Positions 1 through 27,571 of a DNA stretch of 40,708 bases are shown here, piece by piece. Below the pieces are notes generated by a model that saw only the letters and a list, made by a program, of their open reading frames with translations, made no database searches and was not told the origin of the DNA. A program made the translations under genes and the position numbers. The stretch spans positions 1 to 40,708 of the forward strand of contig CAJOCV010000049.1 in the NCBI GenBank assembly GCA_905233785.1. Reading direction: 5' to 3'. This stretch comes from an uncultured Oscillospiraceae bacterium. Lineage in GTDB: Bacteria; Bacillota; Clostridia; Oscillospirales; Oscillospiraceae. Numbering within the stretch: position 1 is the stretch's first letter; every line of letters starts with the position of its first letter.

Positions 1-202
1 GACAGTCCGTAAGTACTGTAACCTCGCGCTGGGCGTCCATGAAGTCCTCGAAGAGTTTCTTTTCATTCTCGCTGAGCGAGGCCGTCAGTTCATCGCCGAG
101 CTTGACGACCCCGTCAAGAGCTTTGGCATACTGGCTGTCACGCTTGAAAGTACGTTCGTTAGGATGAATATCCCCGACATATAGATCCTCTAAAATGTGC
201 AT
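1..202 (-). CDS. small hypothetical protein, DUF6809-like (3' end runs off the window)
   Basis: ATG at 202-200 on the minus strand, open to position 1. Translation MHILEDLYVGDIHPNERTFKRDSQYAKAL...EKKLFEDFMDAQREV resembles the ILEDLYxGNIxPxE N-terminus I recall for DUF6809 proteins of clostridial mobile elements. Absent from the ORF track because it is open-ended. Confidence 0.45.
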   Translation of the reverse strand, partial: MHILEDLYVGDIHPNERTFKRDSQYAKALDGVVKLGDELTASLSENEKKLFEDFMDAQREVTVLTDC

Positions 203-214
203 CGCAGTCGCCTA

Positions 215-697
215 TTATTGTACACTCAGAGACCGGTATTCTTCTTTCAACGTTTCGATAATCCGCTGTTTTTCTTTTTGGGATAGTGACACCAGAAATT
301 GCACGATCATCAAATCCGATTTGAACATTTCACTCTGATCCTGGGATAAGGAGATCAACCGTATTGTTCGATCGACACGAGGATCATGAGATCCTATGCA
401 ATAAATGTCTGTTTTTAAGGAAGAGACCATTTGCTCAAGCTCGCCCAGCGCTTTAATCTCTTTCCCTGCCCAACTTTCATAAGTATAGGCATAAATATCC
501 GAGGGAAAAACGTGCTTTCCATCGAAGCAATTGGCATAAGGGTTGACAACCGCGAGTTCTTGATGCCAGAATTTTGTTGACTTTGCAAATCCATAGCACA
601 GTTTGATTCTCTGTTTTTCGTCTTGCATCTCTTCCAAATCAATCTTCCACATTTCAAGCAAAACAATCCCTCCTTTTATCTCGGCTTGTTTCATCAT
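215..697 (-). CDS. hypothetical protein (160 aa), element cargo
   Basis: ORF-track ORF in an AT-rich region. Same strand as, and 12 nt upstream of, the DUF6809-like gene, so probably one operon. No motif I can name. Confidence 0.6.
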   Translation of the reverse strand: MMKQAEIKGGIVLLEMWKIDLEEMQDEKQRIKLCYGFAKSTKFWHQELAVVNPYANCFDGKHVFPSDIYAYTYESWAGKEIKALGELEQMVSSLKTDIYCIGSHDPRVDRTIRLISLSQDQSEMFKSDLMIVQFLVSLSQKEKQRIIETLKEEYRSLSVQ

Positions 698-734
698 ACC
701 GCAGAGTTCTCTATCTCGCTATGAACCTATAGTT

Positions 735-772
735 CAAAAGCAGCCCACAGATTTGAAGTCTATGGGCTGCTT
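735..772 (-). terminator. rho-independent terminator after the 357-aa gene
   Basis: Minus strand reads AAGCAGCCCATAGA-loop-TCTGTGGGCTGCTT followed by TTTTGAAC. 13-14 bp stem with one mismatch, 13 nt past the stop at 785. Confidence 0.6.
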
Positions 773-784
773 ATGAGTGTTTTT

Positions 785-1858
785 TTATTCTTTGCTTTGC
801 TGTTTATTTCGTTTGCGGTTGAAGTATTGTATCTGGCTTGGTGTATGCGCCGAGCAGTATATTTTCGTATGATAACGTGGATCCACCTCGAAGATCGATC
901 CACACATAGGGCATACACGATACTTTTTATTTTTTATGAGGTCTGTATACAAGCAGAGGTATTCAGCCGTTTCTAATGTTTTTGCCATCCATTTTACTGT
1001 TCCGTTTTTTGTGCATATAGCTGGTTTTGAACCTTCCAGTGAATACTGAAGGTGTTCATCAAGCGAATCCAAGATGAGGTCTTTCAACGCTCTAACATTT
1101 CGCTTTTGAAGTATTTGTTTTATCTCACTATCAGGAAGCTTTCGACAATAGTCCCAGAATAACTCCTTGAGTTCTGAAGAAAAATCCTTATTATTCCAAA
1201 AACGCACGCAGCTTTGGCGGTATTTTTCAGTATGGTGTTGGCGAAAAACGTATTCAAATTGTTTCGTTTTTTCGGCGTTTAAATCTACAAAACCATGGTA
1301 TATCAAGCCAATATCCTCAAACACTTTTAATTTGTGTAGAGAATTATTAATACTTTGATCTCGTTTTTTTGCGATCTCCGGTATTGCTATCAGCTTTTGT
1401 GATCGTGCGAATGACCACAACGATTCAATATTAGACTTGGCAGAGCCATAGTACCGTGCTGCCTGGTACAATAGCTGAAAGACAGTTTCAATGTCCGAAG
1501 AATCAGCTGGCTCCGTATCTAAGCATGTATAATAGAGAGCTCGCATAGCGGTAATCTTTGCTGAAACACAGCGGTAGTGCTGTAGTTCGGTCTCACAATC
1601 AAGTAAATATAAAAGTCTTTCCATTGCTTGCTCACCAGTAGCTCTTCTGATTTTTGTTGAAAAGTACCGTGAGGACAAGATGCTGTTCAGCCTTTTTGAT
1701 AAACCCTGATAGCGACCCTTTGGTAGTCTTTCAGATAAAGCAGAAATAAATTCCTTTTCGCTCGAGACGAGAAAGAGCGGATCAGTATACGGTTTCCCAT
1801 TAAACAGAATTTCAGCCGTGAACGACACGCCGGACGCATCCTGATTATTTCTGGCCAT
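785..1858 (-). CDS. hypothetical protein (357 aa) with C-terminal zinc-ribbon-like CPMCG...YCSAH motif; possibly DUF6076-like
   Basis: ORF-track ORF. GGAGG (1866-1870) lies 7 nt before the ATG at 1858. C-terminus is VCPMCGSIFEVDPRYHTKIYCSAH. The family name is a recollection only. Confidence 0.65.
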   Translation of the reverse strand: MARNNQDASGVSFTAEILFNGKPYTDPLFLVSSEKEFISALSERLPKGRYQGLSKRLNSILSSRYFSTKIRRATGEQAMERLLYLLDCETELQHYRCVSAKITAMRALYYTCLDTEPADSSDIETVFQLLYQAARYYGSAKSNIESLWSFARSQKLIAIPEIAKKRDQSINNSLHKLKVFEDIGLIYHGFVDLNAEKTKQFEYVFRQHHTEKYRQSCVRFWNNKDFSSELKELFWDYCRKLPDSEIKQILQKRNVRALKDLILDSLDEHLQYSLEGSKPAICTKNGTVKWMAKTLETAEYLCLYTDLIKNKKYRVCPMCGSIFEVDPRYHTKIYCSAHTPSQIQYFNRKRNKQQSKE

Positions 1859-1875
1859 AATAGAACCTCCGTGAT

Positions 1876-1907
1876 AAAGGCAATAGCTAAAACCGCTATT
1901 GCCTTTT
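1876..1907. promoter_or_regulatory. perfect 12-bp hairpin in the divergent control region
   Basis: AAAGGCAATAGC-taaaacc-GCTATTGCCTTT, immediately 5' of the RBS of the 357-aa gene on the minus strand. Confidence 0.4.
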
Positions 1908-1948
1908 CTGATTTTAGAAGGACTTACCGCGAAACATGTGCATGAAAA

Positions 1949-2048
1949 TTAATAGGTCTTGTCCATACCGTAAGCTTATTCAATTGGTTTTTAATAGGTC
2001 TTGTCCGAATTTAATTATTAATTTAACACGCTATAATAGGTTTCGTCA
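1949..2048 (+). repeat. three phased direct repeats (TTAATAGGTCTTGTCC), candidate operator or arm-type sites
   Basis: Identical 16-mers at 1949-1964 and 1991-2006, plus a degenerate third copy ATAATAGGTTTCGTCA at 2033-2048. The 42-bp spacing is constant. The third copy overlaps a TATAAT box at 2032-2037. Confidence 0.55.
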
Positions 2049-2115
2049 ATACACAGTTTGTGTTTATATACAGTCTCTGTTGTTAATCCAAGTTTAATCA
2101 ACGAATGTTTGGAGG

Positions 2116-2352
2116 ATGTGCAACGTGATTTCATTTTTGCGTAATTATGATGGCTATCCCGATGCTTTGGAGGTGTGGCAGGCTGCACTGATTTTGCGTG
2201 TCGCGCAAGACACGGTGCGGCGTCACATAAGAACAAGGAAGATCTTGGCGTATCGAATAGGTCGAGGATACATCATACCAAAATCAGAGCTACGATCATA
2301 TATTTTGGCACACGCTTCAAAAAAGGAGGGTACTGCTGATGAGAACCGTTAG
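2116..2352 (+). CDS. excisionase-family (MerR-like HTH_17) DNA-binding protein
   Basis: LEVWQAALILRVAQDTVRRHIRTRKILAYRIGRGYIIPKSEL is a typical excisionase-type HTH. GGAGG at 2111-2115 abuts ATG 2116, so the in-frame GTG at 2125 may be the true start. Confidence 0.7.
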   Translation: MCNVISFLRNYDGYPDALEVWQAALILRVAQDTVRRHIRTRKILAYRIGRGYIIPKSELRSYILAHASKKEGTADENR

Positions 2353-2602
2353 TACATTATCTATAAACATCAAAGCAACTGGTAGAAAAATCGCAACTGT
2401 TAGGGAAAGCGCAGGCTTATCTGTTGCAGATTTACAACAGATTCTGGGCTTTGAGGCTCCGCAGGCCATATACAAGTGGCAACGCGGCGAATCATTACCT
2501 AAATTGGATCATCTTGTGATTGTGGCTGAGGTTTGCCAAGTTCCTTTGGATGATCTAATTGTGCTATCGATAAATTCTAAAACAAAAGGAACCGAGGAAT
2601 AA
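2339..2602 (+). CDS. XRE-family helix-turn-helix transcriptional regulator
   Basis: IATVRESAGLSVADLQQILGFEAPQAIYKWQRGESLPKLDHLVIVAEVCQVPLDDLI is a classic HTH_3 pattern. GGAGGG lies upstream. Overlaps the preceding gene by 14 nt. Confidence 0.8.
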   Translation: MRTVSTLSINIKATGRKIATVRESAGLSVADLQQILGFEAPQAIYKWQRGESLPKLDHLVIVAEVCQVPLDDLIVLSINSKTKGTEE

Positions 2603-2854
2603 TGCAAGGAGAACCGCTTTTACCCGACCTATATCGTCAATTCGTAATTGCCGGCCTGGCCTACGAATCGCCGTACTGGGATTACATTTCCTGTACCGGG
2701 GAAATTGATGCGCTGGACGAAGAAATCGTTCTTCTATGGCACAAGCATATTGCAAGTAGTATCAGAACCAATTAGTGAGCTACCCAAAGCTAAAGCACTT
2801 GAGGAGGGCATTTTAGGCTGCTCCGCATGGTTGAGAGACAAAAGAGAAAACAAG

Positions 2855-4105
2855 ATGAATGATAATGTTATTGATTCCTTAAACAACGCCCTGTATACAG
2901 ATGAGAGTGCTATCCTTGATTTTCAAACACCACAAAGCATCAATCCATATACCGTAGAACGTGCACTGATCGAACGAAAGGGCGAACTCACCCCCTGCTA
3001 TCTTGTCCTGCGTGATGGAATTCCCGCCACCGCAATCAACAAACACTTGCTGGTGAAGCAGGCAAAATACGCCCACCCGTGTTCGACCCCGGCATATGTG
3101 ATCGAAGATTTTTTAAATACCATGGACTCATACGGGCTCAGCATCGAAGAGATTACGCGTGGAAACATTTACGATTATCTCAGCGAGGCATATGTAGAAG
3201 ATGGCAAAGCATACAAAACCATTCTTTCCTACATCACGCATATCGGAGATCTGTTTGACGATCTGCAGATTCACGGTTTTCAGCTCCACCCTTCACTTCT
3301 CACGACAGACAAGCACGCGTTCTACGTGATTAGGAACAAAAAAGCAAAGCGGCATATTACAACGATCCCGCTGATGCGCGCCGAGTTCATTCCGAACAAA
3401 AACGCCGCCTTAAGCAGCGGCATGATCAGCTATACCAAATGGTACACGAAAGAACAGATCCTGGCCATTCAGGCAGAACTGTCTCCCGTCTATCGCTGCA
3501 TTTTCTTGGACACCGTTACGACGGGACATCGCGTAGATTCGGCACTTTCCATCACACTTCAGTCGATTAACATGAGGGAACATTGGATTATGCCTACCCG
3601 TACTAAGACCGGCCGAAACCACAGGGCCTTCTTGCCCGAATTCTTGTCCGAGCAAATATATACCTATCAAATTGAAGACCGCGCTGCCATCGTTCGAAAA
3701 ACCGGCACCGACAGCCAGTTTCTGTTTCTTGGGAGAAACGGAAAGCCTGTGACATATGCCGCCTACCGTGCTGCCCTGCAAACAGCCGCAAAAAAAGTCA
3801 GGACAATTCACCCGGAACTTGGCCTCACAGAAGTTCACACTCATGCCGGTCGTTCGACGTATGCTGCTGCCCTGCGCAGCTATCAGAAATCCCAACAGGC
3901 AAAAGGGATCCCTACTTTTACCGATGACGATTTCTGCAAATTGATGGACTGGGCAAGCATGCAGTGTCTGGATAACTACGATATCCTCACCCGCACTCAA
4001 GACCTTTCTCCGCTCGTAGAGAAGTTTCAAGATGGGTTTTTCTCATTTTTAGATAGAAGCAGTTTGACACCATTGGAGGGATCCACTTGCACAAAATCGA
4101 AGTAG
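2855..4105 (+). CDS. tyrosine recombinase/integrase 1 of 3
   Basis: Motifs TGHRVDSALS (Arg), HTHAGRSTYAAAL (H-x-x-R) and C-terminal LDNYDIL (candidate Tyr). Start placed at ATG 2855 (MNDNV...). The ORF-track extension back to 2648 has no convincing RBS. Confidence 0.8.
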   Translation: MNDNVIDSLNNALYTDESAILDFQTPQSINPYTVERALIERKGELTPCYLVLRDGIPATAINKHLLVKQAKYAHPCSTPAYVIEDFLNTMDSYGLSIEEITRGNIYDYLSEAYVEDGKAYKTILSYITHIGDLFDDLQIHGFQLHPSLLTTDKHAFYVIRNKKAKRHITTIPLMRAEFIPNKNAALSSGMISYTKWYTKEQILAIQAELSPVYRCIFLDTVTTGHRVDSALSITLQSINMREHWIMPTRTKTGRNHRAFLPEFLSEQIYTYQIEDRAAIVRKTGTDSQFLFLGRNGKPVTYAAYRAALQTAAKKVRTIHPELGLTEVHTHAGRSTYAAALRSYQKSQQAKGIPTFTDDDFCKLMDWASMQCLDNYDILTRTQDLSPLVEKFQDGFFSFLDRSSLTPLEGSTCTKSK

Positions 4106-6330
4106 TCCATGAAGAACGTCTCACTATAACACTAAAAATTGACGGCAAATATGTTTGTTTCACCCGCAAAGGGAATCCGGACGTGGTTTACTCTGCCACT
4201 ATGATTTCGGACGATCTTAGCCATTTGCTCGAAGCCACTGCATCCAGCCAACCTCTTTGTGAAATATCCTTCCATCTCGCTGGAACGAACATCATTCGAT
4301 TGATTGATGTATTCTGCATCGATGCTGCGCTGCAATCATGGCGGAAATACGCTGAAGCTACAATAGACGCTTACGCCAACGTAAGGGAGATATTCTATCA
4401 ATTCCTTGGCTTCAAGGTCAGCCATCATTTGAAAGGTAGTACCTTCTGTGCTGAGGCAAAGAAGATTGGGGAAGTCTGCAAAAGGGAGAAGATCTTACAA
4501 GTCTATCACGATGACCGTTACTTCAACAGTGATAGCAACAGAATCTTCAATTCAGAAAAGGGGCGGTCTGCAAGAAATATTCAGCGGCAGGAGCCTTTTG
4601 ATGCGAACGGCATTCGTGTTGAGTTTCGGCGCCAGGATGCCATACATTTCGTTTTTCTCATTAACGGAATCGAGGTTCCGTTGTCCTTGTCGAGAACAAC
4701 TCGTTCTCTGACGCCCAAAAAACTATATGACATAATCATCAAAACCAGAGACAATCTTTTGAAGTTTGATTTCTATAGCCTTGAGAAACTCGCTCAAGAA
4801 GCAGGTGGAAGAACTGTTCTTTGCATCATGCTCGCATTGTACAAAAGTGAGTCAATTCTATTCTTAACTGAATCGTTTAGGTGGATATATAAAAACTATC
4901 GCCGCGTCCCGTTCCCTCGCAAGATGCTGAAAACCACGTTCCACTGTTCTCTGAACAACATCGATGGCGTGGGCGAATTTCTTGGTACACTTGAACAGCT
5001 CATCCCAGAAGCAGAACAATATCTGCTCGATACAACCAATGCTGAAATTGGAACTGATAAGCCCACTTGGGTGCTGTTTGAATCGAAGCCGGGAGGTATA
5101 AAAACAATCACTATTAAATTCAACTTTGGGTCGCCTTTGGATCAGGAGCTTCGAGACTATCTCCGCGATGCAGCAGAACCTGGGATCAAATCAAGGGTTC
5201 CTGTTGCTCTGTTTTTGCTGAACAAATGGACAAATATTCGCAGATCTCTTGAGGCTCTTGAGAAGTTGGGTATACATATCAGTTCAATCGCGGATCTGAA
5301 GCCCGCAGATTGTTTAAGCCTTCAAAGTTTCTTTGCGCAGACTTCAAATCTGGATAATAAAACGCAGAGAACAAGCTTGTTGGAAACCAAAGCCTTTTAT
5401 CAGTTTACTGCCGATCAATATGGTCTCGCTGAGAAGAGTCCGTTTGATTATATTCATCTCCCAAGAAAAGGCGAAGGAAAACACACTCTGCCAATTACGG
5501 ACGAGGCGCTGAGAACCATAGAGGATAAAATCGCTCCGTTGCCGATGTGTTTTCGACTGGCTTTTTGTGTTGCCGTACTTACAGGCGCACGAGCCTTATC
5601 TATCTGTTCTCTGACCAAAAATGCGCTTGTAAAAGAAGACGGTGTCTATTATCTGATCATCTTCCACAACAAAACTGCTATCACCCATACAAATCAAAAC
5701 AGACCAAATTTTACAAAACACCAAGTTGATCAAGACTTTGCTGTTTCGCTCCTCGAATTTATCAGCGATACCGAGGATCTTCGTAGGCAGTTAGATACTC
5801 CTTACATTTTTGTCTATCAGGCTCTGGGACTTCGTGAAGGTTCTCGGCGGAAACCCAAAGTGCTCACGCATTCCGCCTTTGCCGACAAGATTGAGCAGTT
5901 GCTCGATGGGGTTCCACTTTTCCACACAGACGGAACGCCAGTTCGCTGCAACTTCAAGAGCATCCGCGCAGCGGTTGGACATGCCTTGTTTTTAAAAGGC
6001 AATACAGCCGAAGATGTTGCTCGGATGCTCGGAAATACACCACAGGTTGCTGCTACGCATTACAACACCATGGGTGCACGCGAAGAAGCAGAACTCTATA
6101 ATCAACACTATAATGCCACATTTGCCGGATCACGCGCACAGATTGAGCAGCGCCATAAGGCTTCTACAGATCTGGTCCACTTTCCGAGCAACAGCCCGTC
6201 GCAACCCGTTATGTACGGTAACTGTGAAAGCGATAATAACGAACACTGCAACAAAAACGACTGCAATAACTGTCAGCAGCGAATCGTATGCCGAGAAAAA
6301 GGCCAGAGCAAAAAGGAGGCTTGTATTTGA
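4087..6330 (+). CDS. large tyrosine recombinase 2 of 3 (747 aa) with Cys-rich C-terminal tail
   Basis: LTGARALSI (Arg), FHNKTAI (Lys), SIRAAVGH and AATHYNTM (His-Tyr). TTG start 6 nt after GGAGGG (4075-4080). Overlaps recombinase 1 by 19 nt. Tail is CESDNNEHCNKNDCNNCQQRIVC. Confidence 0.8.
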   Translation: MHKIEVVHEERLTITLKIDGKYVCFTRKGNPDVVYSATMISDDLSHLLEATASSQPLCEISFHLAGTNIIRLIDVFCIDAALQSWRKYAEATIDAYANVREIFYQFLGFKVSHHLKGSTFCAEAKKIGEVCKREKILQVYHDDRYFNSDSNRIFNSEKGRSARNIQRQEPFDANGIRVEFRRQDAIHFVFLINGIEVPLSLSRTTRSLTPKKLYDIIIKTRDNLLKFDFYSLEKLAQEAGGRTVLCIMLALYKSESILFLTESFRWIYKNYRRVPFPRKMLKTTFHCSLNNIDGVGEFLGTLEQLIPEAEQYLLDTTNAEIGTDKPTWVLFESKPGGIKTITIKFNFGSPLDQELRDYLRDAAEPGIKSRVPVALFLLNKWTNIRRSLEALEKLGIHISSIADLKPADCLSLQSFFAQTSNLDNKTQRTSLLETKAFYQFTADQYGLAEKSPFDYIHLPRKGEGKHTLPITDEALRTIEDKIAPLPMCFRLAFCVAVLTGARALSICSLTKNALVKEDGVYYLIIFHNKTAITHTNQNRPNFTKHQVDQDFAVSLLEFISDTEDLRRQLDTPYIFVYQALGLREGSRRKPKVLTHSAFADKIEQLLDGVPLFHTDGTPVRCNFKSIRAAVGHALFLKGNTAEDVARMLGNTPQVAATHYNTMGAREEAELYNQHYNATFAGSRAQIEQRHKASTDLVHFPSNSPSQPVMYGNCESDNNEHCNKNDCNNCQQRIVCREKGQSKKEACI

Positions 6331-7877
6331 ATACACTCAAAAAAACTGCATCTGAAGAAGCCATCCCCCATCTGATAATTGTAGATGGCGGAGGTGAACA
6401 GCCTGCTTTCGCCGAACGAGATATTAACCACATGCAAACCATTCTCTCCCAGTTCTCCGAAAATAAGCTCATGGATGACAAGTGGCAGATTCGAATTTCA
6501 TCATCGATACGTCAGACAAGTGTACTCTTCCCGGCATTGCCTCGTATGATTGATATTCTTTTGATTCGTGCCCTTGTTTTGCAGATGCTTTCTTATGCAT
6601 CCTCTTCCATTGGCCGTGCTGTCAAAGACGCTGAATGGATCCTTGGCTTCTTTAGTGATCATCATATTTACATCGAGAACTGTCGAACGGCAGTGGTTGA
6701 CCTCATTATCAAAGAATTGGATCGTACTGCTGATTTCTCTGTGATGCAAAAGAACTCGATTATGACAACACTTGGCACCATGATCGAGCTTTGTGAGGGA
6801 TTCGGTTTGGTCGCGGGGACAGGCATTGTAGATTGCAGCTACCGGTGGAAGGATACCCGGTTTCCAAAGCGGGCTACGGATGCCTGTGTAATCGAGCAGC
6901 TCGACTCCTATTTCTTCGATCCCATAATCGACATTCCACTGCAGTATCGCACGGTATATATGCTGTTGCGCCTTATCAGCAATCGGATCAGTGAAGTGCT
7001 GTTCATGCCTATCGACTGCCTCATTTATCCGGATATTGATACATATTCCATCAGCATTCCGACGCAGAAGGCTACACCCTATCATGTTCCAAAGTATAAG
7101 CAGTATCCTAAGAAGCTGTCCGGAATTGAAGAAGGTCTCTTGCACCGCTGTCTCTGCGAACTCCAACAATATGCTGAAAGTCAGCAGAACCACCTTCCCT
7201 GTCAGCACCAGAACCTTCTGTTCGTTTCTCCAACCGGAAACACCATCGTCACAACATCTGATGTCAACGACTATTTCAAGGACATCTGTGTGAAGTACCT
7301 CATCAAGGACTCTTCTGGAAACCAGGCTATCATTACTACGCATGATCTGCGTCATACCGCTGTTGTGGAACGTTTTAAATACGGGGTCATCTCTCCATAC
7401 CAAACTATGCGTGAGAGCAATCACAGCAGCCTCTCGCAGACGTTAGGCTACAGTTACGCCTCTGTACATGATGAAACGGAAAAGTTCACGGAGATCTCTG
7501 AGGAGGTTCTAAGCAATTTCCTACTCTTGCCTGCATCTGGTGAAGTCAAGCCGCGCGAGCTCGCGACAAAGAAGTTCCTTGCTCTGAAAGAAGATCCAAA
7601 CACACGGCTTCTGTTAGACGGCTCCATCTGTCTAAATCGATCGTGTGTGCCAAGCTTTGAGGCCTGCTCCGACTGCGAAGACTTCCATGTTGATCCTATG
7701 TACCAGGAAGCCTTGGAAAGCTACATTGCCCTTCTCTCCGATAGATCTCAGATGCTCAGAAGCAAGGGTGGTAATCCAGATACGATTGCTTTTATCGAGC
7801 ACCAAGTTGAAGTCTATACGAAAATGCTGAACAAAATCAAACGTTGCGCAGAGAGCGCGGAAAGAAAGGTTAGCTAA
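6327..7877 (+). CDS. tyrosine recombinase 3 of 3
   Basis: SNRISEVL (Arg), IPTQKAT (Lys), THDLRHTAV (H-x-x-R) and LGYSY (Tyr). Start proposed at TTG 6327, 7 nt after GGAGG (6315-6319) and overlapping the upstream stop as TTGA. The ORF track's ATG 6288 is an in-frame alternative without an RBS. Confidence 0.78.
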   Translation: MNTLKKTASEEAIPHLIIVDGGGEQPAFAERDINHMQTILSQFSENKLMDDKWQIRISSSIRQTSVLFPALPRMIDILLIRALVLQMLSYASSSIGRAVKDAEWILGFFSDHHIYIENCRTAVVDLIIKELDRTADFSVMQKNSIMTTLGTMIELCEGFGLVAGTGIVDCSYRWKDTRFPKRATDACVIEQLDSYFFDPIIDIPLQYRTVYMLLRLISNRISEVLFMPIDCLIYPDIDTYSISIPTQKATPYHVPKYKQYPKKLSGIEEGLLHRCLCELQQYAESQQNHLPCQHQNLLFVSPTGNTIVTTSDVNDYFKDICVKYLIKDSSGNQAIITTHDLRHTAVVERFKYGVISPYQTMRESNHSSLSQTLGYSYASVHDETEKFTEISEEVLSNFLLLPASGEVKPRELATKKFLALKEDPNTRLLLDGSICLNRSCVPSFEACSDCEDFHVDPMYQEALESYIALLSDRSQMLRSKGGNPDTIAFIEHQVEVYTKMLNKIKRCAESAERKVS

Positions 7878-8306
7878 ATGGAAACAGAGAGTAAAAATAC
7901 CTTTACAAACCTTAGTAACCATCAGAAGGAAATGCGCGCAGAAATGACACAAAGAGTTCTCAACGCTCTGGAATACTTTGATGAGTGCGGGATAAAAGCG
8001 ACAATGAAAGCGCTTGCTGAACACATAGGATGTCATGTGAACACTCTCAAGCAGCCATATATACGCGAACTTCTGAACGAGCGCAAATGTGCACCCAAGA
8101 AGCCGGATCTTGAGACTGAAAACCGTCTTTTGAAAGAGCGCAACAGTAAACTCGAAGAGAGACTGGCTCATTCTCTCAATCACAATGCGAGACTGCAACA
8201 AGAGAAGGAAACTGCGAAGAAGCGAGCAGATGAATATGAATACAAGTACAGATGTCTTCTTGGTAAATACCAAATTGAGGTTGGGAAGAAAAATCCTCAC
8301 ATTTAA
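7878..8306 (+). CDS. TnpC-like (DUF6262-like) coiled-coil protein
   Basis: 142-aa ORF starting directly after the recombinase 3 stop (TAAATG). N-terminal HTH-like segment (IKATMKALAEHIGCHVNTLKQ) followed by a charged coiled coil. Its position matches tnpC of Tn554-type modules. Confidence 0.55.
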   Translation: METESKNTFTNLSNHQKEMRAEMTQRVLNALEYFDECGIKATMKALAEHIGCHVNTLKQPYIRELLNERKCAPKKPDLETENRLLKERNSKLEERLAHSLNHNARLQQEKETAKKRADEYEYKYRCLLGKYQIEVGKKNPHI

Positions 8307-8314
8307 CGCCAAAA

Positions 8315-8353
8315 GTAATAGCCGTCACATGTTTAGCATGTAACGGCCATTAC
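8315..8353. terminator. bidirectional terminator-like hairpin at the end of the recombinase operon
   Basis: GTAATAGCCGTCACATG-tttag-CATGTAACGGCCATTAC, 17-bp stem with 2 mismatches. Followed by TTTCTG on the plus strand and by CTTTTGG on the minus strand. Confidence 0.5.
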
Positions 8354-8530
8354 TTTCTGTCACGTACAGAACGCCGGCTTTCCGCCAATTCTTAGCAGAT
8401 GTTCTTTACAAAGACAACAAAGGAAAGGACAATAATGATTCCAAAGACATATAACAATCAAACCATTGAAATTACTTGGTTATCTCTTTATTGTCCATTT
8501 TTTGATGCCTTTGTTTCTTCACATCTTAAT

Positions 8531-8590
8531 GGTCGAACTCCCGGCTTCCACATCCCAAATGTGGCGCCCTACCAACTGGGCTACACCCGG
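8531..8590 (-). pseudogene. tRNA-Pro(UGG), 5' ~60 nt only, truncated after the T-loop
   Basis: Minus strand reads CCGGGTG-TA-GCCC-AGTTGGTA-GGGC-G-CCACA-TTTGGGA-TGTGG-AAGCC-GGGAG-TTCGACC. That gives the acceptor 5' half, a paired D stem, a paired anticodon stem with anticodon TGG and G37, and the 5' T-stem plus T-loop. The next bases (ATTAAGATG) cannot form the 3' T-stem or acceptor strand. Confidence 0.65.
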
Positions 8591-8667
8591 CTATTGTCAA
8601 AAGGAACACGCTCCGAGCTCCTTCGCTCGCGCAACGAATGACAAGAGAGGAAAATCTCGGCTCGCAT

Positions 8668-8696
8668 ATTATATACCAAGTTTTCGCTCAGTGCAA
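8668..8696 (-). promoter_or_regulatory. sigma-A-type promoter for the tRNA-Pro gene, now pointing into the element
   Basis: Minus strand reads TTGCAC (8696-8691), a 17-nt spacer and TATAAT (8673-8668), about 75 nt upstream of the tRNA 5' end. Confidence 0.55.
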
Positions 8697-8777
8697 GAGA
8701 TTTCTGGCTGTCGCTGCAAGCCCTATGCGCGCGCTGTAATTTTTCGGGCATACATACTTTTTTTATTCACAAAGCTG

Positions 8778-8786
8778 TGCTATACT
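8778..8786 (+). promoter_or_regulatory. possible extended -10 (TGcTATACT) for secA
   Basis: TGCTATACT lies 33 nt upstream of the secA ATG. There is no good -35, so this is weak. Confidence 0.3.
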
Positions 8787-8818
8787 CTAATCTGCATCAC
8801 TGTAAAAAGGAGTATACC

Positions 8819-11590
<2,772 letters not shown>

Positions 11591-11596
11591 TAAAAA

Positions 11597-12298
11597 ATGG
11601 AGTCGCTGAAACAGTACATTTATCTCGATGAAGGCGGAATAGACAGCTTATATGCACAGATTGCAGAAGAAATAGTAGTCGAACGGGAATTTGAAGTTGA
11701 AAAACATTCTGCTGGCGAGGCAAAAGGAACTTTTTCTGCAAAACTGAATGAGCTGTTAGATACAGGCATCAGTCTATCGGGGGAGGGGGGGACAGCAAAT
11801 ACTACTCGCGTAAAAACCACATTTCCCATGGAAAAAAAGCTGATGCTTATTCAACTCTATGTCAAGGAAAATGAAAACCTGATTGAGCATTACGGAGACA
11901 TTTCGAGGAAATACAAATCAAACAGCCAGAATTTCGTTCTATTAACAGATAAATTTGATACCAGTCTTGATTGCCGGGATTGGTCGAATGCCATGCGACA
12001 GATTGCTCAATTCGAGTATATTCCATTCTATAAAGCTCCTTCTGAGAAGGCAGACAGCTATGAATATGATGATTCGTATTATAAAACCATGTCAATGTAT
12101 CACACAAAAGTGACCATGAATCTTGGTGTGCAGAAGATGCGGGATGGTTATTTTCACAGTTTTGGAATGACATCGCACATGGCAGTATTGTTTCGTATAT
12201 GCCGCGGGGAGAATATTCCGTTAGGAGTTTTTGGCCATCTTTATAAATTAACGGAAGATATATTCCAGATTAAACCTTATGCTGTATGGCGGGTATGA
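11597..12298 (+). CDS. orphan hypothetical protein (233 aa), AT-rich
   Basis: ORF-track ORF starting 6 nt after the secA TGATAA double stop. Its composition contrasts strongly with both neighbours. No motif recognised. Confidence 0.65.
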   Translation: MESLKQYIYLDEGGIDSLYAQIAEEIVVEREFEVEKHSAGEAKGTFSAKLNELLDTGISLSGEGGTANTTRVKTTFPMEKKLMLIQLYVKENENLIEHYGDISRKYKSNSQNFVLLTDKFDTSLDCRDWSNAMRQIAQFEYIPFYKAPSEKADSYEYDDSYYKTMSMYHTKVTMNLGVQKMRDGYFHSFGMTSHMAVLFRICRGENIPLGVFGHLYKLTEDIFQIKPYAVWRV

Positions 12299-18887: not shown

Positions 18888-19054
18888 ATCAGAGCGCGTG
18901 TGCGAGAGCACGGGCGTATTATGCGAGGAAGCGGGAGATTGCTCGCGGTAGCGAGGTAACTTCCGTGGAGTATGTCCGGTGTCGGCTCCGTGCCGGCACG
19001 CAATCGGGCGGCTGAAACCGATCCTGTATTCGCGTATATCGCGTGTGCGGAGGA

Positions 19055-26196: not shown

Positions 26197-26847
26197 TTAC
26201 TCTGCCGTACTGCTTGCGACGGTATGGTTTTTGTAAGTGCTCCAGGTTGGCTCATAGCCGGGATCGGCCTGATTACCCCACATATCCCATCCTTCGCGAT
26301 CTCCTCGCGCAAATAACTCGATGCGATTTGGCTGACTGCAGGACTCAATGATCGGTATGATCTCGTCCGGTTTTCTACTGTGTTCACGCTTTTGCGCTCT
26401 GATAAGGTTGACTTGAGATCGTGCGGGTGCTAAGGTTCGGTTGGGCGCACTGTTCTTTTTTATGCCAAAGAGCAGCAGTTCGGTAACATTACGAAAATAA
26501 AATCCGACGCCGCGCCCGTCAGGCAAGCCGTCCTTGCGTACTTTTTCCCAAACGACATTTCCCTTGTATTCAAAGCCCCAGGAATCCATCACTGCCAAGC
26601 CGTCCGGAAGCAAGGCGTTGGGAATCCATAGGTATAAATGAGCTTTCTGGTCTGCAATATTGGCAACGGGAAGTGCCTTGATGTCCTCCAGGGTCATTGT
26701 TTCATATCTTGAAAGCCTTTTGTGCTCAGGGGAAACTTTACCTGTGCGGTTTTGAAATTGCCATGGGGGATCAGCGTATATTGTGTTATATTTTTTACCA
26801 TTTGTGAATGTTAAAAGGTTATTCGAGGTCTCCTCAAGATTACTCAT
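26197..26847 (-). CDS. MT-A70-family DNA methyltransferase (DPPW motif)
   Basis: YADPPWQF is catalytic motif IV. AT-rich. Its ATG overlaps the stop of the upstream endonuclease gene (ATGAGTAA). Confidence 0.8.
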   Translation of the reverse strand: MSNLEETSNNLLTFTNGKKYNTIYADPPWQFQNRTGKVSPEHKRLSRYETMTLEDIKALPVANIADQKAHLYLWIPNALLPDGLAVMDSWGFEYKGNVVWEKVRKDGLPDGRGVGFYFRNVTELLLFGIKKNSAPNRTLAPARSQVNLIRAQKREHSRKPDEIIPIIESCSQPNRIELFARGDREGWDMWGNQADPGYEPTWSTYKNHTVASSTAE

Positions 26848-27499
26848 ATCCTTTCACACATCCCTTCTTGATGCCGATAGCCAGGATTGGGCATCCGCCG
26901 TTCCGTCTACTATCAAGCCGGTATAGCAGTTTACCAATCCAGGTGGTCGAGGCGCCATATTTTGTCAATAAACCAAGTTCCCTGAAAATGTCATTCAGAT
27001 CCTCTGATCGGGTGACAATTACACCGACGTCGATTAATCCGCAATCAAAATATGTTCGCATGGCAAGCAAATCGCGATCAAAGGTTTGGTCTTTGCTGTT
27101 CCATTCAAGGTCAAAGGCGACTTTGTTTTTCAGAAAATCAATATTGTGGCCATCAATATAACCGCGTATGGTCTCAATTTCAAACGGCTCAGACGCAAAT
27201 CGGCCTCTGCGCTGGGCAACCTGACGAGGATACTTTTTTACAATCAGATCTCCGGATATACGAATTTCACGCCATCCGAGAGGGTAGAGGACATCATCAA
27301 ATTTTTTCGGAATCGGAGATTCATTACCGCCCGCTTTCCTTATATCCATCAATGACAACTCAAGCTGTCGAAGAGATTGCTGTATCTCATTCCATTCCTC
27401 CGGAAAGCTTTCATGCAAAATCTCCAAAGCGTGTCCGTAGTCGTAAAACTCAAATTTTGGCTGAATAGCCGGATCTATATAAATACCGTTTGCGATCAC
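26840..27499 (-). CDS. type II restriction endonuclease, BglII/BamHI-fold candidate
   Basis: YDYGHALEILHESFPEEWNEI and IDFLKNKVAFDLEWNSKD resemble, from memory, BglII YNHADEIL...WKEI and IDFGKRDTLVEVQFS. Start set at GTG 27499, 7 nt after GGAGG (27511-27507). The ORF-track start at 27556 is a TTG only ~9 nt from the predicted TSS. Confidence 0.6.
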   Translation of the reverse strand: MIANGIYIDPAIQPKFEFYDYGHALEILHESFPEEWNEIQQSLRQLELSLMDIRKAGGNESPIPKKFDDVLYPLGWREIRISGDLIVKKYPRQVAQRRGRFASEPFEIETIRGYIDGHNIDFLKNKVAFDLEWNSKDQTFDRDLLAMRTYFDCGLIDVGVIVTRSEDLNDIFRELGLLTKYGASTTWIGKLLYRLDSRRNGGCPILAIGIKKGCVKGYE

Positions 27500-27571
27500 G
27501 CAGCTACCTCCTCGCGCAACATAACTCAACGTATAAGAAAACATCCAAAAGGACAAAAAACCATAATAAAT

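Follow-up and report, generated by a model that had tools for sequence, protein, structure and literature searches.

A 40,708-nucleotide (nt) stretch of DNA from an uncultured Oscillospiraceae bacterium (contig CAJOCV010000049.1, referred to hereafter as the window) carries at its left end part of a genomic island, which abuts a host tRNA-Pro(UGG) gene beside secA. The island part spans positions 1–8529, has a G+C (GC) content of ∼44% and runs off the left edge. The tRNA gene is incomplete in the window and lacks 15 nt relative to four otherwise near-identical assemblies. With a probability of about 80%, this reflects the insertion of a site-specific island that spared the tRNA, followed by a secondary 15-nt microhomology deletion. 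An integration that destroys its target tRNA, as proposed in a preliminary description of the window, would be surprising if true. It is not supported; what is seen instead is a private 15-nt deletion beside a precise, tRNA-sparing insertion.

The 5' part of tRNA-Pro(UGG), 58 nt long, lies on the minus strand (8590–8533) and reads CCGGGTG TA GCCC AGTTGGTA GGGC G CCACA TTTGGGA TGTGG AAGCC GGGAG TTCGA. It comprises the 5' acceptor strand (CCGGGTG), the D arm, the anticodon arm (UGG, G37), the variable loop, the 5' T-stem strand (GGGAG) and, up to 8533, the first five T-loop nt (TTCGA). The well-formed 5' part noticed in the preliminary description was thus borne out. Directly 3' of this stub come CCA and then TTAAGATGTG. 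The encoded CCA end is therefore kept (8530–8532, minus strand) and, together with A8533, makes up the ACCA that forms the last host bases before the island; A8533 can be counted equally as a T-loop nt or as discriminator A73. TTCGACC, previously taken for the T-loop, was misread at its end, as its ACC and the A that follows are the tRNA's own 3' end, ACCA (discriminator and CCA).

No tRNA gene was found by ARAGORN in the whole 40.7-kilobase (kb) window, and the Rfam tRNA covariance model (RF00005) scored the stub at 27.5 bits (E 0.0012), just short of the gathering score of 29; in its alignment, the acceptor stem and T arm are unpaired or broken. The absence of a complete tRNA at this place, as first described, was confirmed in both ways. 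A complete cloverleaf scoring at or above the gathering score, which marks a functional tRNA, was present in the sister contigs described below and absent from the window. As written, the window copy cannot fold into a tRNA and is inactivated in the given sequence. To that extent the earlier claim of inactivation stands; its cause, however, is an internal 15-nt deletion and not the island.

The junction was compared in four independent metagenome assemblies (n = 4), L001 (ERZ27234810), L003 (ERZ1667813) and the Logan runs X1 and X2 of rumen or gut samples. L001 and L003 are the junction-spanning contigs among those that encode an identical 357-amino-acid (aa) island protein (785–1858 in the window). 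In all four, secA, tRNA and island meet in the same way: the tRNA-Pro is complete, at 76 nt, and ends ...CTCGGACCA, and the island end TTAAGATGTG comes directly after it. The complete 76-nt tRNA-Pro(UGG) was called by ARAGORN in both L001 and L003, and the stub (8533–8590) is 100% identical to the corresponding part of both. Alignment of the window with the sister contigs revealed a single gap of 15 columns, with identical sequence on both sides: the sister contigs read GGGAGTTC GAGTCTCCCCACTCG GACCATTAAGATG, whereas the window reads GGGAGTTC GACCATTAAGATG. The deletion point lies between 8532 and 8533 (minus strand), where the 15 nt GAGTCTCCCCACTCG are missing, with a 2-nt ambiguity of placement and a GA microhomology. 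Similarly, the contigs of X1 and X2 carry, at full depth, the extra 15 nt behind 8532, TCCGAGTGGGGAGAC. T-loop nt 59–60, the 3' T-stem strand and the 3' acceptor strand are lost by the deletion, which fuses TTCG to ACCA; the junction sequence that marks the deleted form is TTCGACCATTAAG. The same island in the same place thus abuts a complete tRNA-Pro in L001, L003, X1 and X2, and did not, as had been supposed, cut the gene after the T-loop and leave it unrestored. Sequence identity had appeared to end here owing to the island; what lies at this point is the internal deletion, the contigs being identical otherwise.

Relative to L001, the window has no indel from 217 to 11843 apart from the 15-nt gap, and no other difference of any kind over 217–8794. 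The one other indel in 11.8 kb is of 2 nt, at 202–203, where the contigs vary anyway. A 60-nt query of words spanning the deleted junction found the deleted form in none of the indexed public runs; one junction word does occur in X1, which the 2-nt ambiguity of placement accounts for. No copy of the missing 3' tRNA piece occurs elsewhere in the window, and no damaged tRNA was seen at any recovered junction other than that of the window.

Island junctions at tRNA 3' ends

Relatives of the island in four other lineages abut tRNA-Pro, tRNA-Leu or tRNA-Lys after the CCA, indicating that a junction lacking tRNA restoration is not a property of the element, contrary to the first description. In the window, L001 and L003, which carry the same island, tRNA-Pro(UGG) and island meet as ACCA TTAAG ATGT. 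In L098, whose protein B (the large recombinase of the island) is 66% identical, the target is the tRNA-Pro(UGG) just after metK, with ACCA GACAG ATGT. The target is again tRNA-Pro(UGG), with ACCA AAATT ATGT, in L088, L089 and L091, in which protein B is 45% identical. More distant islands abut tRNA-Leu(UAA) in L111 (14417–14486, cut by the contig end), with CACCA TTTGT ATGT, and tRNA-Lys(UUU) in L113–L115 (14457–14532 in L113), the last gene of a Gly-Arg-His-Gln-Lys operon, with CACCA GCATT AGGT. The junctions follow the rule ACCA-N5-ATGT, with ATGT in four lineages and AGGT in L113. Complete tRNAs stand at the junction in five island lineages, that of L111 being cut by the contig end: the tRNA is intact in L001, L003, X1, X2, L088, L091, L098 and L113, but not in the window with its 15-nt deletion.

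The recombinase operon of L088, L089, L091 and L098 faces the complete tRNA-Pro, which is convergent with it and lies ∼200 nt after gene D, the last gene of that operon. The bodies of the three tRNA-Pro genes are not the same, their T stems being compensated, and have the acceptor CCGGGTG/CACTCGG in common. This acceptor is also found in island-free tRNA-Pro genes of the same clade (L033, L064 and L101). A G4-U69 wobble had been considered as a sign of a hybrid tRNA and was dropped, as the same acceptor stem occurs in these island-free genes. At the empty sites of L101 and L064, an intrinsic terminator follows tRNA-Pro directly, and divergence from occupied sites sets in right after ACCA. L101, another organism's island-free tRNA-Pro, was the single contig recovered in a metagenome scan. 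A goat-gut contig (X6) matches window positions 8533–8595 and has this tRNA with one mismatch and different flanks, followed by ACCA TATGTGGACGTG; it is either the site of another host or an ATGT-containing end of another element. A motif search gave no inverted copy of the island terminus in any locus, and no circular-junction contig was seen among the run contigs matching the island.

The island and its flank differ in how far they have diverged between strains. Relative to L001, there is no single-nucleotide polymorphism (SNP) in 217–8529, as against 42 (1.5%) in the adjacent secA (8795–11527). The contrast points to an island that has lately spread or recombined among strains. Relative to L003, there are four SNPs in the 8.3 kb of island and four in the 140 nt of tRNA flank (8594–8733), where the density is at least the 1.5% seen in secA. 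The SNP density of the flank therefore suggests that it evolves with the host and that the island spread recently. Similarly, the occurrence of an identical island in strains with diverged flanks suggests that it moved, or was moved, recently; being identical between host strains that differ by 1.5%, the island is probably active in the rumen or gut. Base composition changes over the same region, from ∼44% GC over 1–8306 and 36.6% over 8307–8530 to 64% in secA (8819–11590), the host as a whole being at ∼60%.

Origin of the deletion

According to the reading that we prefer, the host tRNA-Pro(UGG) gene would be the attachment (att) site of a site-specific island mobilised by a four-gene module, comprising recombinases A (ordinary), B (large) and C (third) and a small TnpC-like protein, D. 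The family would insert directly after the encoded CCA, through recombination at or next to ACCA, keeping the tRNA whole and replacing only its terminator (ACCA-N5-ATGT). A secondary 15-nt deletion with 2-nt microhomology, in the lineage or the assembly behind the window, would have removed tRNA nt ∼59–73, presumably after integration, and transcription from the tRNA promoter would run into the island as far as a hairpin at 8312–8356. A spontaneous microhomology deletion after integration is the simplest reading because the window shares its flank allele with L001, in which the junction is intact.

Several points weigh against this account. The deletion is known from assembled sequence alone, which leaves undecided whether it is a real variant or an assembly or consensus error, and whether it followed integration. 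The far end of the island is in no recovered contig of any lineage, and the att repeats and crossover point can accordingly only be inferred. Look-ups with window proteins gave only contigs that break near a DUF6809 gene; those with SecA and its 233-aa neighbour, aimed at the far end, returned no record. A homolog search with a LanM fragment of L002 gave no match, and a concatenated BrxC and ABC query found BrxC on other elements and not on the L088 contig. No empty site for this exact locus was found, the tRNA leader block occurring only in X1 and X2, both of which are occupied. Finally, in the close strains X3, X5 and X9, other sequence lies to the left of 8750. Their contigs match secA and its promoter at 95–99% and continue to the left of 8750 as CCAACGCCGCTGCCCGCTAAAAAATCGCGG, an unexplained structural variant in close relatives.

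The gap could be an artefact, the organism having an intact tRNA-Pro of which 15 nt were lost in assembly, polishing or binning. We regard this as possible but rather doubtful. It would account for the presence of the 15 nt in every other assembly and run with the junction, and for the failure to find the deleted junction in any indexed public run; moreover, loss of tRNA-Pro(UGG) might cost the cell. However, the window shows almost no other indel relative to L001 over 11.8 kb (only the 2 nt at 202–203), and its assembly is therefore not indel-prone. The ends of the deletion share just the 2-nt GA and offer no repeat for a graph assembler to collapse, and both observations favour a real variant. 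If the deletion is real, it bears on the dispensability of this tRNA-Pro copy.

The gap might be a footprint of the island recombinases themselves, left when they cleaved or exchanged strands aberrantly at a T-loop pseudo-site. Such an event could date from integration, with the missing piece then expected at the far end of the island, or from an excision that was aborted. For an integration variant at the T-loop, the far junction would begin with GTCTCCCCACTCGGACCA, followed by the native terminator. The T-loop GTTCGA does resemble the CTCGGA before CCA, and the right edge of the deletion is 0–2 nt from the ACCA that abuts the island. [quoted passage not shown] However, the tRNA-flank allele of the window is common to L001 with its intact junction, which favours one integration and then a deletion; no recombinase is required to lose 15 nt at a 2-nt microhomology, and direct evidence of a recombinase at work is lacking. 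We therefore think it unlikely that a three-recombinase machinery caused a non-random loss of 15 nt at a T-loop pseudo-site, in a family that occasionally inactivates its target tRNA and forms an undescribed branch of the GInt and Tn554 group, with defence and bacteriocin cargo in Oscillospiraceae of the ruminant gut. If it did, islands with a conserved, transcribed terminal hairpin of ∼130 nt could occasionally inactivate the tRNA that they target.

That the tRNA-Pro and its promoter are island-borne, the true boundary lying near 8750 upstream of the secA promoter, is very improbable and was rejected. In its favour, species with 82–86% identical SecA have no tRNA upstream of secA, with homology starting at ∼8755, in the X3, X5 and X9 contigs the secA promoter adjoins other sequence at 8750, and public data show the tRNA block only where the island is present. 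Against it, SNP density relative to L003 is host-like in the tRNA flank (∼60-fold that of the island), GC content switches at the tRNA, the tRNA of L098 follows metK and that of L113 is the last of a five-tRNA host operon, and L101 has a tRNA one base different, with the same promoter type, without an island. A secA scan of genome contigs, in which SecA identity reached at most 86%, gave no tRNA upstream of secA and no empty site.

Transcription, island end and recombinase module

A putative tRNA promoter, TTGCAC-17-TATAAT, lies on the minus strand at 8696–8668, and a 5' leader of ∼77 nt (8667–8591, minus strand) extends from the -10 box to the tRNA; the leader is identical in L001 and has two SNPs in L003. 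CTTGCR-17-TATAAT also precedes the tRNA-Pro genes of L088 and of island-free L101, and by this conservation the promoter looks functional. The earlier claim that an intact promoter drives the stub is upheld as to its presence and conserved arrangement, but a simple consensus scan did not list it, TTGCAC matching TTGACA at only three of six positions.

The insertion replaced the tRNA's own terminator with island DNA, and read-through to a hairpin inside the island is therefore expected. This stem-loop (8312–8356) lies right after the stop codon of gene D and consists of 20-nt arms (8312–8331 and 8337–8356), 90% complementary, around a 5-nt loop. It was absent from the terminator-scan list, having no run of five T, and probably terminates transcription both ways, from the operon and from the convergent tRNA gene. 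A 161-nt RNA contig in a sheep-gut metatranscriptome (X14), its strand not given, is 100% identical to 8356–8516; no RNA from the rest of the island, including the recombinase genes, was found in X14. This contig fits read-through from the tRNA promoter halted at the hairpin, although an independent small RNA is equally possible. Of the earlier proposal that the transcript runs into the island and is stopped by the hairpin, the hairpin is real and RNA from 8356–8516 exists.

The island terminus, TTAAG-ATGTG (8529–8520, minus strand), consists of the variable 5-nt spacer and the conserved ATGT. It belongs to an AT-rich island end with a long imperfect palindrome or hairpin (8397–8526; z -3.6), whose outer arms are (A)GATGT and its inverted copy. 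The architecture of this palindrome, but not its sequence, is kept in L088 (14322–14445, z -4.2) and L098 (6987–7102, z -4.0), and in the three island lineages it begins within 5 nt of the tRNA CCA. The folds were computed singly, the terminal sequences of the three lineages not being alignable. The palindrome might work at the DNA level, as paired recombinase sites, or as an RNA.

The recombinase operon reads outward, towards the junction, on the plus strand, with cargo and backbone upstream of A and the end of gene D 224 nt from the junction. It is headed by two small helix-turn-helix (HTH) genes (HTH_17 and HTH_3; 2125–2602). Gene A (2648–4105) encodes an ordinary-size tyrosine recombinase with the signature R..HAGR..W..Y and a Pfam Phage_integrase match of 1.1e-10; its product has 416–465 aa in sister contigs. 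The product of gene B (4087–6330; 747 aa), a large tyrosine recombinase bearing R..KSIR..N..Y, matches integrases weakly. Gene C (6327–7877; 516 aa, or 516–529 aa; open reading frame (ORF) from 6288) encodes a third tyrosine recombinase (R..HDLRH..H..Y) with a PHROG integrase match of 1.6e-9. Gene D (7878–8306; 142 aa) has an HTH-like N-terminus and a coiled coil. The A–D ORFs overlap or abut, and an alignment of three lineages showed the catalytic signature in all three recombinases and conserved C-terminal cysteine clusters in B and C. Protein B belongs to a rare family: a word-indexed search gave four 90% clusters among 5.8 billion sequences, and an exhaustive profile search among 1.84 billion representatives gave 129 clusters at E<=1e-3 and 54 at E<=1e-30. 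B and D had no BLAST similarity in 72,556 plasmids, A and C had no sequence match in the PDB, and no relative was found in IMG/VR by protein B, the junction pattern or a profile of C.

Gene D is a probable counterpart of TnpC and GinD, to judge from distant profile similarity. TnpC of Tn6188, a transposon of the Tn554 type, belongs to DUF6262. The window protein did not match the DUF6262 profile; its L098 ortholog aligned over the full profile length at E 0.0017 and 19 bits, below the cut-off of 29. Comparison of the window protein with a Bacillus DUF6262 protein by hhalign was weak (E 0.12).

Upstream of the operon, the 357-aa gene (785–1858, minus strand) has weak D5_N and zinc-ribbon (primase-like) matches and belongs to the island backbone. 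A conserved 160-aa backbone gene lies at 215–697, and backbone homologs occur in L088, L098 and L113. Cargo differs between contigs: a PIN/Phd toxin–antitoxin pair and a lanthipeptide cluster (C39 ABC exporters, LanM-like) in the sister contig L002 (2886–11385), BREX (BrxA, BrxB and BrxC) in L088 (1–4275) and a type I restriction–modification (R-M) system in L113 (1–2895). The same BREX cassette is carried by a different integrase element of L105, the first 934 aa of BrxC being 100% identical.

Elsewhere in the window, a low-GC islet (11597–12298, plus strand) between secA and a laccase-domain gene encodes the 233-aa protein mentioned above, which has a weak DUF6414 match; the same gene is present in L001. 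A second low-GC islet (26197–27556, minus strand), which lies directly after ribosomal protein L5 (25358–25897) and was apparently inserted in the ribosomal-protein gene region, has genes for an MT-A70 methyltransferase (3.7e-29) and for a BglII-type restriction endonuclease (2.4e-43). An S10-Clostridia ribosomal protein leader (18918–18999, plus strand; 39.9 bits, above the gathering score) fits a Clostridia (Oscillospiraceae) host.

Relation to known elements

GInts are defined by a ginABCD operon, and GinD has been reported to resemble TnpC (PMC5385486); together with SEs, Tn554 and recombinase-in-trio (RIT) elements, they form a wider group of tyrosine-recombinase elements (PMC10214605). 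The island resembles GInts in its four-gene order (an ordinary, a large and a third recombinase-fold protein, then a small TnpC-like one), a likeness that rests on architecture and on the published link between GinD and TnpC. It also resembles them in its site-specific insertion beside a conserved gene that is kept, its short AT-rich end and its variable adaptive or defence cargo (here lanthipeptide, toxin–antitoxin, BREX and type I R-M), and att-site variants and small deletions have been reported for GInts. Flanks of 10–17-nt imperfect direct repeats and excision as a circle are further GInt traits. In GInts, however, ginA abuts attL and the cargo follows ginD, whereas here the operon stands at the end of the island, reads outward and has its cargo upstream of A. 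Protein C of the window keeps the full RHRHY set, of which GinC is without part. The sites named for GInts are protein-coding (ABC transporter, ssb and RNR; PMC5385486), whereas the target here is the CCA end of a tRNA. The hosts, too, differ, being here gut Oscillospiraceae.

With the Tn554 family (tnpA, tnpB and tnpC; Tn558, Tn6188 and Tn6674), the island has in common Firmicute hosts and strict target specificity. The att554 site of Tn554 lies in radC. The island differs in its outward operon, in the 516-aa recombinase C between B and D, which is foreign to the three-gene module, in its much larger size with a primase-like backbone, and in using a tRNA target instead of att554. The module had first been described as Tn554-like; this was reasonable for A and B followed by a TnpC-like D, but the extra recombinase C sets the island apart from members of that family. 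Tn554 and Tn558 have the core GATGTA (PMC7843796), which the island junction GATGT resembles; we take this as a lead only.

Classical tRNA islands and prophages of the P4 and lambda types likewise target tRNA 3' ends, leave the tRNA intact, lie downstream of it and have recombinase genes beside the tRNA-proximal end. They rely on a single integrase (Int), with or without an excisionase (Xis), whereas four recombination proteins, three of them tyrosine recombinases, are found here. Their attP contains a tRNA 3' segment, which is repeated directly at the far end (attR). The junction here falls directly after CCA, similarity among lineages begins only after the 5-nt spacer, no long replacement segment is evident in the island family, and the contigs recovered, which all stop short of the far end, show no far-end repeat.

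A Bacillus mycoides plasmid (NZ_CP150649.1, L107) carries an operon of the same order and sizes, encoding an HTH protein, an integrase, integrases of 757 and 552 aa and a DUF6262 protein. Protein C of the window is 28% identical to its counterpart there (E 3e-12), and B is 23% identical (E 1e-15). That operon differs in residing on a conjugative plasmid, beside a type I R-M system, and its D passes the DUF6262 cut-off, unlike that of the window. RIT elements consist of three recombinases as the whole element, with long inverted repeats and neither a fourth gene nor cargo (in part, PMC10214605). The island, with its gene D, large backbone and cargo, is not of this kind. Nor is it an SE: SEs have the order intA, tfp (no RHRY), intB (large) and srap (PMC10214605), whereas here the large recombinase comes second and the third protein keeps RHRHY.

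The interest that remains lies in a module that is GInt- and Tn554-like by architecture, differently arranged and aimed at the CCA end of a tRNA. To our knowledge, it is not yet settled how transposition proceeds chemically in the GInt, SE and Tn554 groups, and with its simple conserved junction (ACCA-N5-ATGT) and terminal hairpin the family could be a convenient model. We conclude that the description that suits the island best is that of a GInt/Tn554-like element of variant layout: its ABCD operon reads outward, its third recombinase is catalytically complete and its target is the CCA end of tRNA genes. Lacking defining features of each, it belongs to neither family.

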